A DNA stretch of 63,999 nucleotides, filler included, from Collodictyon triciliatum (lineage: Eukaryota): assembly GCA_043381765.1 (NCBI GenBank). It is 12 parts of 12 records of this genome, joined end to end, with 100 filler letters (N's around TTAATTAATTAA, not from the genome) between each part and the next. Parts side by side here need not be neighbours in the genome. Positions count along the whole stretch, not along the records: positions 59,442 to 63,999 come from JBHJMP010005355.1; 11 more parts are not named here. One strand, 5' to 3'. A program made the translations under genes and the position numbers. Under the pieces are notes generated by a model. That model was given only the letters and a program-made list of their open reading frames with translations. It did no database searches and had not been told where the DNA came from. This document shows positions 60,321 to 63,946 of the stretch, one piece after another (position 1 is the stretch's first letter; the number at the start of each line of letters is the position of its first letter).

Positions 60321-63300
60321 ATGAATCAAAATCAGACACTGTGAATTATAAATTTACAATGATAAACATAAGAACATCATATCATATTTTCATACATATT
60401 TTCCACCATTTAAATTTAATAGATTGAATAATGATGTTTTTTTTATTATCAAGATACGCTTCAAGGCATGCTATCGCACTAATTTTTGTGATGTTCATAC
60501 CATTTTGTTTGGCTTCTTTTGACAGGTTTTTAACTTAAAGAATCCAAGAGTTACTTATAAAAAGGAATCACGTCTCTGAATTATATTTTTGGATTTTTTC
60601 TATAACACCAGAGCTAATGGAGACTGCCGCTACTCACGGGATGAACTCAAATCCATGAGAATGGAGGATGCGTTTGAGATCTTAATGAAATCGTATGAAG
60701 ATAAATGTATGGCGCCTAATTCGAGGAACGATGAAAGACAGCCTGAATCGATAATAAGCGGAGATGATATTCTTGGGGTCGACTTGAAGATTCTTGGTAG
60801 CCACAGGAATAATATCAAACCTGATTTTGAATATCAGAACGAAGCCAAAAGATTATTGGGGTACACAAGAGGCGGATTGCTGAATCCTGATGGGGAACCA
60901 AACAGCAACCCGAGAATCGAAAACGTTCAAAGGTCAATCATTCAGGATTCGCCAACTCAATATGACTCCCTTTGCCAGCTATATGAGGCACTAAATGGAG
61001 ACGACTGGTATGACAATACAGGGTGGAAATCTAAAGAATTGCCTGTTTGCTATTGGGTTGGGGTAGAATGCGTCCCCAATTGTATGGATGAAGAATTGAT
61101 GGTATATTTTCCATTTTCAATAAGGATATACATATGAATGCAATCGTTTTTATAAATTTTTTTTTTTTAGAACAACACATGCCCTGTAATTGGATTTTGG
61201 ATGCAGGATAACAACAATAGCGGCGATATCACTACTGTGCACTCAATTATGCAACTGTTTCCATTCTTGAGAAACATCAATTTCAGTTTCAATTCAATAT
61301 TTGGGACTTTACCAGACTTTGAACTTCCCTCTATTTCATACATAAACTTCTGGACAAATCAATTAACCGGAACAATAGCCGACTTTCAAGGAATCCCAAA
61401 TGTTGAGCATATAGAAATAGACGATAACGTTTTTGAAGGAACCATCCCTAATTTTTCGGCAATACCCTTCATTTCCACCTTATACATTGGAGTGAGTAAC
61501 AAACTGGAAGGTGCTATTTCCATTCATGTTTGAATATGCTATTATCGATTTTTTTTATCATCATTACAAAAATTTTTATAAAAAATAGGGACATTACCTA
61601 ATTTTTCTGGCTTGTTGAATATTGAGACCCTAGGAGTGTATAGGACAACAATCACAGGTATTACATTTTGTAAGAAACAAAAAGATCTGGGACTAAAAAT
61701 GTGTGAATAATAGGTGCTATTCCAAACTTCGACAACACTCCTTACATGAGTTTACTTGATATGTATGGAAATGCGTTCAATGGTAACTTTTCTCTCTGAT
61801 TTTATATGAAAGTCGATTATTCTTTGAGATACAAGTCAAAAAATGAAATTAATCGGTTGCCTATCGAGATTGATTTTTTTTAAAATGTGCACTTATCAAG
61901 TTACAAACTTGAATTCAACTCAATAAGCAAATCATAGAGACATTACCTGATTTTGGAGGGATTCCATATGCTTACAACATATATATTTACAATAACAAAA
62001 TCTCCGGTTTGTTCATAAAATAATAGTATTTACTCTGCCATACATAATATCTTAAATATTGTGATATTTCACTAGTATGATAGCTAATATGTTAAAACTA
62101 GGAACTCTTCCGAACTTCAGTGATATCCCGTACTTGTCTCAACTGATAGCCTACAGTAATTTCCTTACAGGTTTCCTTTCTTTTTGAGAAAATTGTTCGA
62201 TTTAAAGGGATATATATATTTTTTTAAAAAATCCGTTGATTCTATCTTGGCGTAACAGGAGCTCTTCCAAACTTCGACAAGATGCCGCGATTGTCTGCTC
62301 TATCTTTGCATCGAAATTTCCTTTCAGGTTTTAGTTTTATATATAATGAAACATATTTTATAGGAAAGCAAAAATGTAACTATTTTAATTAATCGGAAGA
62401 TGAAGAGGTTTGTTTAAAATTATAGGCGTTTTGATTGAGCTGAATTTTTTTTATAAGAAATATCCTTTCCATGATTTTTTCCCTTATTCAATTCAAAGTG
62501 AAATATCATGCCAAAGATGTTTATGCAACCCCACAACCGAGTTTATTCCTCTATACACTTGTTTTATATGAAATTGTACTGAAAATATGGAATGATTTCT
62601 TTGAGACGATTTAAATATCACAGCATGCCATTTTCCTGGTTTTCGTTTGTTTTGAATACTACCACATTCTCAATACTCATTTACAATTTGATTGTAGGTT
62701 CAATACCGGATTTCAGTTATTTTCCGAGACTCGTTAGCTTGTCCCTCTACAAAAACCGACTGAGCAGTACTAATTTCTATTTTGTTTGAAACATACTCCA
62801 TAAAAATAGAAGATTTAAGAAACGCCGTAATCAACAAAAAAAAAACATTTATATTACAGGTACAATCCCAGATTTCCAAGGCATGCCAAATCTACAAGAA
62901 TTATATACACACGAGAACAATCTAGTTGGTATGATGAGCATCTGAATGTTTCAACGTCGGAATTGCTTATACCTATAGTTTCAGAGGATTCATTTATCAA
63001 GACTTATTACCTATGTGCTACTTTCATTCAGGTCAAGTACCGGACTTCAGCAATTTGGCGAGCCTTGTATACCTATACCTCTACGAGAACCAATTAACCG
63101 GTAAAATATGAATCTAACATCAATAGGTTTCAATATCCAAAATGCTATGATTAAAAGGAGTGTTTAGTCACTAAAGCAAGAATAATTTTACAACTCAGGT
63201 ACGTTGCCGGATTTCAAAGGTATACCAAATGTACAATCATTGTTTTTGAACGGAAACAATTTAGTTGGTAATATGAATATCTTATTAGTATAATATCGAT

Positions 63301-63946
63301 AGTATGGTCGTATAAAATTCCAAAGAATTTATTCGGCGTCTGACTCCTGGTTATGTCTCGTTTTGATTCAGGTCAAGTTCCTGATTTCAGCAACTTACCA
63401 ATACTCACAGTATTGTACCTCTATGACAATCGATTAAGCGGTACACATTACATTAATGGATAAAAGCTATCATCATCGGAAATAGATTAATACCATGATG
63501 CATCTTATCAATAAATTTTATGTCTCCCATTATAGGTACACTACCTGATTTTCAAGGCATACCGAGTGTGAATATATTGGGATTTAGAAGAAATCAAATC
63601 AGTGGTAAGCACAAGCCCTGATATCAATGCCAATATTATCTAGTCATCTTGCTGAATTGCTATCAACACCATTCAATCATATGGCACATTATAAAATGAT
63701 TTCGCTTATAGGAAGGATACCAAATTTCAGCAACTTACCAAATCTTGCAATTCTGTACCTATACGACAACCAATTAAGCGGTAAAATGACTGAGTTCAAA
63801 ATGAACAAGCTTCACCATAGCAAATAATCTAGTCGAATGGTGTGGATAATCACTCAAAATTATCATATGAATCGCAGGCGCGGTGCCCGATTTCCAAGGT
63901 ATACCGAATGCACAACAATTATGGCTTAGCAGAAACCAAATGAGCG
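60321..63946 (+). CDS. signal peptide + LRRNT cap + plant-type-like 23-aa LRR array (receptor-like protein), partial; one LRR per 69-nt exon
   Basis: Exons 60321-60340, 60454-60525, 60612-61101 and 61171-61510 are followed by thirteen 69-nt exons starting at 61589, 61714, 61938, 62102, 62259, 62698, 62860, 63032, 63199, 63372, 63536, 63712 and 63878. The cap motif is LCQLYEALNGDDWYDNTGW...CYWVGVEC. Confidence 0.92.

Follow-up and report, generated by a model that had tools for sequence, protein, structure and literature searches.

A Collodictyon triciliatum gene with one leucine-rich repeat in each of at least thirteen 69-nt, phase-1 exons: a receptor-like array of probably old tandem-duplication origin

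We analysed a stretch of 63,999 nucleotides from the protist Collodictyon triciliatum (GenBank assembly GCA_043381765.1), here called the window, which consists of 12 pieces joined end to end. The gene described here lies on the plus strand of the last piece (59442 onward, 4558 nt in the window; record JBHJMP010005355.1). We observed that it carries 13 consecutive exons of exactly 69 nt, each encoding one 23-residue leucine-rich repeat (LRR) and each in phase 1 on both sides. We regard it as probable that this is a secreted or membrane LRR receptor-like gene, whose exon array arose by old duplication of exon-intron units and is constitutively spliced.

We searched both strands of the whole window for segments with a length of exactly 69 nt, an AG directly before and a GT directly after them, and no stop codon in the frame in which 2 nt remain at the 5' end and 1 nt at the 3' end. 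The scan gave 144 segments (96 on the plus strand and 48 on the minus strand), and 14 of them fell within 61589-63946, namely the 13 exons and one overlapping spurious segment. When other lengths were used in the same region, we obtained 0, 3, 3, 3, 1 and 0 segments at 60, 63, 66, 72, 75 and 78 nt, respectively, against 14 at 69 nt. Pro at position 4, Phe at position 6 and an aliphatic residue at position 15 occurred together in 13 of the 144 segments, and these were exactly the 13 array exons. We also used a splice-aware pattern, in which a donor, an intron of 83-113 nt and an acceptor precede a 69-nt exon that has the motif and is followed by a second donor. This pattern matched six of the 12 intron-plus-exon units and none of 100 dinucleotide-preserving shuffles.

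The first five array exons are located at 61589..61657, 61714..61782, 61938..62006, 62102..62170 and 62259..62327. The last eight alternate between two classes, class A being represented by array exons 6 (62698..62766), 8 (63032..63100), 10 (63372..63440) and 12 (63712..63780), and class B by array exons 7 (62860..62928), 9 (63199..63267), 11 (63536..63604) and 13 (63878..63946). All lie on the plus strand. An acceptor AG and a donor GT flank 13 of 13 exons, including the last, and all 12 introns inside the array are of the GT-AG type, with lengths in order of 56, 155, 95, 88, 370, 93, 103, 98, 104, 95, 107 and 97 nt; the longest follows array exon 5. The codon split at the 12 internal junctions is Gly in ten cases, Glu once (array exon 2 to 3) and Ser once (array exon 6 to 7, where exon 6 ends in A), and the junction leading into array exon 1 is also Gly. 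Most of the junctions read G|GT, and the intron sits after the first base of the Gly codon in the turn 'NxLxG|xIPxF'. The frame is preserved whichever exons are skipped, and the new junction codon is then G, E, S, R or K, never a stop. As the window ends 53 nt past array exon 13, the number 13 is a minimum and the gene is truncated; no more than about 740 nt of this last piece would be expected outside the window.

The consensus of the repeat is G-x-[LIV]-P-[DN]-F-x3-P-x-L-x2-L-x-L-x2-N-x-L-[ST]. The residues P4, F6 and [LIV]3 were present in all 13 repeats, and G1 and P10 in 11 of 13. The LxxLxLxxNxL segment was clearly represented, with L15 and N20 in 12 of 13, L12 in seven of 13 (aliphatic or Met in 12, with one Ala), an aliphatic residue at position 17 in nine of 13, and L, I, M or F at position 22 in all 13. 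The highest entropy was seen at positions 13, 14, 16 and 19, which are the x positions of LxxLxLxxN. The GxIP motif marks the plant-specific-like LRR class, in which the repeat length is 24 residues. Judged by their motif, the array repeats are LRRs of this plant-specific-like type, although they differ from it in length, with 23 residues instead of 24 in 13 of 13 repeats. An initial annotation of this DNA had described the 13 consecutive 69-nt exons, the common split codon (mostly Gly), the GxxPxFxxxPxLxxLxLxxNxLx repeat, the variable LxxLxLxxN face, and a frame that any subset of exons would preserve, and on all of these points our analysis agreed with it.

Upstream of the array we identified three further exons on the plus strand, and the splice sites of the three upstream introns were read directly from the sequence. 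Upstream exon 1 (60431..60525) starts with an ATG, spans 31 codons plus 2 nt, and ends at a confirmed GT donor. Hydrophobic residues account for 22 of its first 31 positions, and from this hydrophobicity alone a signal-peptide-like N-terminus is predicted. The earlier description of a signal-peptide protein was thus borne out as regards the hydrophobic start, although the signal peptide itself stays a prediction. Upstream exon 2 (60612..61101, acceptor AG at 60610-60611) encodes the N-terminal region and has an LRRNT-like Cys cap at its end; the match to Pfam LRRNT_2 was weak (E 0.0019, 18.9 bits, under the cutoff of 20.7). Upstream exon 3 (61171..61510) encodes four to five irregular LRRs of about 27, 22, 23 and 24 residues in a single exon without introns. 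On its own it matched Pfam LRR_1 with an E-value of 1.8e-4 (21.4 bits, cutoff 20.6), and three of its LRRs were also weakly matched by a hidden Markov model (HMM) of the array exons. The complete model has 16 exons and 1822 nt, that is, 607 codons with no stop, and retention of any one of the 15 introns would introduce an in-frame stop within 3-21 codons.

We then compared the gene with known proteins. A word-indexed search with upstream exon 3 returned three longer proteins, the best being P0001 (1504 aa, 36% identity), a transcript of Diphylleia rotans in EukProt. D. rotans belongs to the Collodictyonidae, within the CRuMs. An exhaustive HMMER search gave 14,751 proteins at E <= 0.001, with at most 44% identity among the matches listed. 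We examined ten matches: five of them (P0097, P0073, P0147, P0152 and P0094) align from query residues 1-3 and are all from D. rotans, while the other five are metagenome or genome proteins. Another member of the family is P0164 (paired with P0152), and at least six distinct D. rotans paralogue clusters align from the N-cap.

Residues 149-607 of the spliced model align colinearly to residues 144-647 of P0001 (30% identity, E 4.6e-79). The first LRR spacings of P0001 are 27, 22, 23, 23 and 24, and some twenty repeats with a length of exactly 23 come next. In our model the detected spacings are 22, 23 and 47 (24 + 23), followed by twelve of 23, so that the two proteins start in a closely similar way. 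The model therefore has the N-terminal layout of the Diphylleia family, with an LRRNT-like cap, irregular first LRRs and then a long run of 23-residue LRRs, behind the predicted signal peptide. However, the identity is only 30-36%, the repeats are not orthologous one to one, and the Diphylleia genes are known from transcripts alone. In a repeat-by-repeat comparison of the model with P0001 we found no diagonal; the repeats of the window matched best those P0001 repeats that are closest to the consensus. The class A repeats have 14-16 of 23 residues in common among themselves, and no more than 14 with any of the 32 repeats of P0001, which suggests a lineage-specific expansion of class A.

In the Diphylleia paralogues, a hydrophobic segment at the N-terminus is followed by an LRR array and a Cys-rich stretch, and the C-terminus contains 6-8 hydrophobic helices. 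Some of them carry NIDO or FG-GAP modules at the N-terminus and differ in length, and the C-terminal module is common to six further proteins. The nearest solved structures to P0001 were FLS2 (E 8.6e-88), followed by GSO1, PEPR1 and BRI1, all of them ectodomains of plant LRR receptor-like kinases (LRR-RLKs). The proposal in the initial annotation of an extracellular LRR receptor fits with the hydrophobic start, the weak LRRNT_2 match, the signal peptide and 6-8 helices of the Diphylleia proteins, and these ectodomain matches.

We also evaluated the C-terminal domain of the Diphylleia proteins. No Pfam family matched it above threshold; for P0298 the match to TRP (PF06011) had an E-value of 6.5e-4 (19.1 bits, under the cutoff of 28.5). 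The Atlas features pointed, at 0.95, to clusters with Ephrin_rec_like and with TRP in 12-15% of the members, which we treat as a lead only. No match to this domain was found by sequence in the PDB. An AlphaFold model built from a 12-sequence alignment had a predicted local distance difference test score (pLDDT) of 72.6 and a predicted template modelling score (pTM) of 0.70. With this model Foldseek returned nothing at E <= 0.001, and the best VIA-align hit (Z 6.2) was in the noise range of helical bundles. When the C-terminal module was searched by tblastn against the other pieces of the window, there was no match at 1e-3.

The history of the array was examined from the divergence of its copies. 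From 62698 to 63999 (plus strand) there are four tandem super-units of ~340 nt, each consisting of an A exon, an intron of ~93-98 nt, a B exon and an intron of ~103-107 nt, with the last copy cut by the end of the window. A repeat search placed the A exons 334, 340 and 340 nt apart, and the B exons 339, 337 and 342 nt apart. Ungapped exon identity was 61-72% within class A, 52-72% within class B, and 39-55% between A and B. The lengths of the introns alternate along with the exon classes: those behind A exons have 93-98 nt and those behind B exons 103-107 nt. When the four units were aligned, the exons were conserved and the introns little. Of 66 intron pairs compared with shuffles, only three stood out: 8-12 (z 6.7), 10-12 (z 4.1) and 10-11 (z 3.5). 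The intron-length alternation, the ~340-nt period and this residual intron similarity are what duplication of whole units is expected to leave, and growth of the array by tandem duplication of whole exon-intron units is, on these comparisons, the most likely course.

The mean proportion of synonymous differences (pS) was 0.76 within A, 0.63 within B and 0.79 between A and B, which is saturated. The corresponding nonsynonymous values (pN) were 0.22, 0.32 and 0.45. In view of this saturation and of the divergence between the introns, the tandem duplication would be old, and not a recent shuffling of exons. We did not find young, near-identical exon-intron units within the gene (maximum exon identity 72%, pS 0.63-0.76). 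Scaffold positions had a pN of 0.17-0.24, and the five concave-face positions 0.38-0.58; with pN well below pS, the copies are, on this evidence, held by purifying selection on scaffold residues. Concave-face positions are the most variable ones in any LRR. The only ratio of nonsynonymous to synonymous substitution rates (dN/dS) above 1 was the value of 1.9 at the concave face of class B, and it is not interpretable because the synonymous sites are saturated and there are only five concave-face codons per exon, compared in non-independent pairs. The suggestion of a diversifying receptor, which the initial annotation had drawn from the variable face, was therefore not upheld: the concave positions do vary, but that single value is all that exceeds 1.

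Together, these observations led us to the following scheme. The sequence would be the 5' two-thirds, or less, of an LRR receptor-like gene, in which signal-peptide-like, LRRNT-like and irregular-LRR exons are followed by a regular solenoid with one LRR per exon. The array would have grown at the DNA level by tandem duplication of intron-flanked LRR units, and the last step of this growth may have been about three duplications of the two-exon A/B unit of ~340 nt. As the exons are symmetric, with the same phase at both ends, each gain or loss kept the frame. The duplications would be old, with the copies coming under purifying selection afterwards, and constitutive splicing of the exons most likely gives a single long LRR ectodomain. 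By homology with Diphylleia, further LRRs of 23 residues would probably be encoded in the missing 3' part, together with a Cys-rich stalk and a multi-pass membrane domain; the receptor function is likewise a prediction.

Several points weigh against this scheme. Constitutive splicing, even if most likely, is an assumption. The C-terminus of the gene is predicted from homologues of 30-36% identity, and the gene is probably also cut by the end of a ~5.3-kb contig. The assignment of the array as LRRs rests on the motif, on upstream exon 3 and on the alignment to P0001. The remaining 63 of the 66 intron pairs had z < 3.5, and direct support for unit duplication over intron gain is limited to the last four units. 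Finally, the similarity within classes A and B could partly reflect a structural constraint on an alternating super-repeat, and not ancestry alone.

Among the alternatives, we considered that exon shuffling might be ongoing, with exon-intron units being swapped and duplicated fast among the paralogues of a large family. Paralogues are indeed expressed in D. rotans (at least six clusters recognized from the N-cap), which vary in length and in the modules at their N-terminus (NIDO and FG-GAP, for example), and six additional proteins have the C-terminal module. The lack of positional orthology between the repeats of this gene and those of P0001 would also be expected. Array exon 5 (62253-62331 with its flanks) resembles array exon 2 (61708-61735) at its 5' end and acceptor (89% over 28 nt), and array exon 4 (62158-62174) at its 3' end and donor (94% over 17 nt), so that it could be a mosaic of the two, possibly an old mosaic or conversion tract. 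However, even the best exon pair within the gene reaches only 72% identity, synonymous differences are at saturation, and little similarity is left between the introns. With nhmmer (E <= 10), neither of the two long introns (155 and 370 nt) yielded a decayed exon, and the array-exon HMM matched the 13 exons and the three LRRs of upstream exon 3 and nothing elsewhere in the window, so no LRR exon was seen on the other pieces. Shuffling as a continuing exchange, which had been put forward earlier, is at odds with this divergence (pS 0.63-0.79), and we consider it unlikely.

The symmetric exons might instead be skipped or chosen during splicing, giving many receptor isoforms from one gene. The structure would allow this, as every subset of the 13 exons preserves the reading frame and a stop codon arises from none of the skips. 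The brown-algal ROCO genes (PMC11378527) and human NLRP3 (PMC6642158) are reported to use their LRR exons alternatively, and the same precondition is present here. A repeat search of the 4558-nt contig, which is a coarse test, yielded no Dscam-type docking site or selector sequences, and no recurrent intron element or docking complement, but only A/T-rich low-complexity inverted pairs. We also looked at transcripts of the related species. In the P0001 cluster (clusters being formed at 90% identity) the LRR arrays of all five members were identical where they overlapped, and seven further pairs of Diphylleia isoforms differed at their termini or by gaps of 1, 5 or 12 residues, never by a multiple of 23; as transcripts of another species, grouped at 90% identity, they are weak evidence. 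In addition, skipping an odd number of exons would disturb the order in which A and B repeats alternate among the last eight. Combinatorial or alternative splicing thus appears quite unlikely, and constitutive splicing of an anciently duplicated array remains the reading that we prefer.

Metagenome data were examined for the locus and for comparable arrays. None of the sequencing runs listed for the sequence was of RNA; ten DNA metagenome runs (freshwater, lake and aquaculture) carry shares of 0.05-0.13 of the sequence. In the four runs that were compared, the matches were short contigs with 0-3 differences and no joints, none of them longer than ~280 nt. The intervals 61639-61789 and 61990-62140 were matched with 0 differences by freshwater metagenome contigs in the genomic, intron-containing form. 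Separately, a 151-nt freshwater contig (run X3, record 24) differed from 63805-63955, which covers array exon 13 and its upstream intron, by 9 substitutions and 2 gaps; this may be a diverged allele, a paralogue or a related species.

A pattern made from upstream exon 3 gave 590 matches in metagenome contigs, with 0 confirmed split arrays. The splice-aware pattern gave 47 loci in these contigs, where protists are poorly covered, and at introns of 83-113 nt only; 0 of the 47 were split arrays, 39 being in continuous open reading frames (ORFs) of at least 165 codons and 8 in short ORFs (21-60 codons) without an LRR motif. Four loci, L036 and L037 (on one contig), L028 and L014, were long continuous ORFs of strictly 23-residue LRRs, with nearly the motif of the array (xIPDFSxLPNLxxLxLxxNQLT), on low-GC contigs. 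The bacterial-type proteins P0002 and P0003 also contain continuous 23-residue LRR arrays with a similar motif. By these matches, the 23-residue plant-like LRR is widespread without introns.

Such continuous arrays raise a further alternative, in which an uninterrupted 23-residue LRR array gained its introns independently and repeatedly at a G|GT proto-splice site. Arrays without introns and with the same motif are common (P0002, P0003, L036 and L037 being examples), and within this gene upstream exon 3 has homologous LRRs without introns. Most junctions do read G|GT, and the great majority of the intron pairs (63/66) lack similarity. On the other hand, the position and phase of the introns are identical at 13 of 13 junctions, the intron length classes alternate with the exon classes, the ~340-nt period extends over four units, and introns 8, 10 and 12 keep a weak residual similarity. 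Repeated intron gain is therefore very unlikely in our estimation. That the array is an artefact or a dead gene, either a misassembly (the window being stitched from ~5.3-kb contigs of a poor assembly) or the relic of a pseudogene, has next to no probability, since the exons differ too much (<=72% identity) for a repeat collapse, 607 stop-free codons extend over 16 exons with pN well below pS, and parts of the locus recur in independent metagenome contigs with 0-3 differences.

With unit duplication as the preferred origin of the array, we compared its layout with systems described in the literature. The brown-algal LRR genes (Ectocarpus and Saccharina, ROCO and type I) resemble it in having one LRR per exon of fixed length, in a single phase, in candidate receptors (PMC3341825; PMC11378527). 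Exon shuffling was originally proposed for the Ectocarpus LRR genes (PMC3341825), and in the ROCO genes the LRR exons are 72 bp and in phase 2, with both shuffling and multiple splice variants (PMC11378527). The ROCO proteins are cytosolic LRR-ROC-COR GTPases, whereas the present gene has 69-nt exons, a phase-1 Gly codon and a signal-peptide-like start; and whereas shuffling and alternative transcripts are documented in brown algae, the duplications here would be old. In Tetrahymena the LRR exons are exactly 90 bp and number tens of thousands, with phase 2 in more than 96% of ~72,000, and the authors stated that such arrays were not known to them from any other organism (PMC6564038). This system is similar in its tandem LRR exons of equal length, its bias for one phase and its occurrence in a free-living protist, and was interpreted as exon duplication and shuffling. 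It differs in its 30-residue unit, its thousands of genes and its link to an element resembling a long interspersed nuclear element, as against a 23-residue unit and one visible gene here. No association of a transposon with the array was seen on the contig of the LRR gene.

The plant LRR kinases share with this gene the LRR class (by sequence), an extracellular array behind an LRRNT-type cap and many one-LRR exons (PMC3050792). In the rice LRR-kinase genes, the first Leu codon of xxLxLxx is interrupted by a phase-2 intron, and 72 nt is the usual exon length, with occasional exons of 69 nt (PMC3050792). The plant introns thus lie in the Leu of the beta-strand with a modal exon of 72 nt (24 residues), unlike the Gly of the NxLxG turn and the 69 nt found here. 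The plant proteins also carry a kinase; none was seen here, and the homologues end in a multi-pass membrane domain. In NLRP3 the LRR exons are 171 bp and have fixed borders, each encoding two LRRs of the ribonuclease inhibitor type (28 and 29 residues), and one exon is skipped in humans (PMC6642158). NLRP3 and the NLRs have in common with our gene a fixed border position within the repeat and a modularity that is a precondition for splicing. NLRP3 is nevertheless a cytosolic sensor with two LRRs per exon, in which exon skipping has been shown experimentally, as compared with one LRR per exon here.

In this comparison, equal length, one repeat per exon and a single phase were found in 13 of 13 array exons, with a length and phase that differ from those of Ectocarpus, Tetrahymena and plants. 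The layout itself is known in kind, as one-LRR symmetric exons occur in plants, brown algae and ciliates. The earlier statement that 72-nt one-LRR exons exist in plant LRR-RLKs and in Ectocarpus ROCO genes agrees with PMC3050792 and PMC11378527, both in phase 2. Its companion statement, that a strict 69-nt version was unfamiliar, is likewise in line with the open literature, in which we found no description of a 69-nt LRR exon array among the papers listed; in the same literature search, which did not cover subscription journals, no paper on a Diphylleia nuclear genome was found among those listed. Because the length (69 nt), the phase (1) and the intron position (the Gly of NxLxG) differ from the known cases, the 69-nt phase-1 layout appears, by comparison of gene structures, to have arisen independently. 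A stronger proposal would be an independently evolved cassette system, in which 69-nt exons of collodictyonid-like LRR/multi-pass receptors are still gained, lost, exchanged or skipped to give a variable repertoire. This we consider quite improbable.

The remainder of the window consists of contigs of ~5.3 kb that are stitched together with eleven N44-TTAATTAATTAA-N44 spacers at intervals of ~5.4 kb (5312, 10722, 16130, 21538, 26944, 32349, 37752, 43150, 48548, 53945 and 59342). The ends of the pieces are often in microsatellites, such as (AC)n at 59315-59341 and (GTAT)n at 59442-59543, and a 416-nt N run at 2894-3309 is separate from the spacers. As the window is made of 12 stitched pieces, genes on different pieces are not physical neighbours of the LRR gene. 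Two long uninterrupted ORFs on the plus strand encode WD40 repeats. The first (13746-16181, 811 codons) has WD40 propeller repeats followed by Cys-rich repeats of the Ephrin_rec_like (GCC2/GCC3) type, with 14 Ephrin_rec_like stretches (E 1.2e-77) and NCD3G-like matches. The second (40316-43201, 961 codons) has about 20 WD40 repeats by Pfam, and Cys-rich repeats were seen by eye near its 3' end. In contrast to the LRR gene, neither ORF is divided into one exon per repeat, and neither had a tblastn match to the C-terminal module of the Diphylleia LRR proteins. An 870-codon ORF at 6928-9540 (plus strand), on a GC-richer piece (up to 54% GC), matched the NACHT / STAND NTPase group (E 1.3e-7) and is possibly an NLR-like gene on a separate contig. 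The first part of an eIF2-alpha gene (S1 domain) lies at 47018-47992 on the minus strand and is 88% identical to that of D. rotans, the next best among the matches listed being 82%. With this gene as a taxonomic pointer, and with the freshwater metagenome matches, the source would be a freshwater collodictyonid-like protist, a relative of D. rotans but distinct from it. Two HMG-box ORFs (34765-35424 and 36291-37181, plus strand, E about 1e-7) are on one piece.

To our knowledge, no immune or prey-recognition receptors have been described from the CRuMs, a deep eukaryotic branch. With a single LRR in each symmetric exon, a solenoid can change in length and composition without a frameshift, and rapid evolution of receptors in brown algae, ciliates and plants, as well as regulated skipping in human NLRP3, has been connected with such a layout. 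If the proposal of a cassette system were true, it would be a further convergent modular LRR-exon solution after those of brown algae, ciliates, plants and vertebrate NLRs. As an old and stable array, the value of this gene is that of a comparative data point and not of a demonstrated generator of diversity. If the layout did recur independently in a different supergroup, this would support the idea that symmetric exons and repeat solenoids readily evolve together. The gene also points, in a sparsely sampled protist lineage, to a receptor-like family that has no solved or curated relative and combines LRRs with a Cys-rich stalk and a multi-pass membrane domain.

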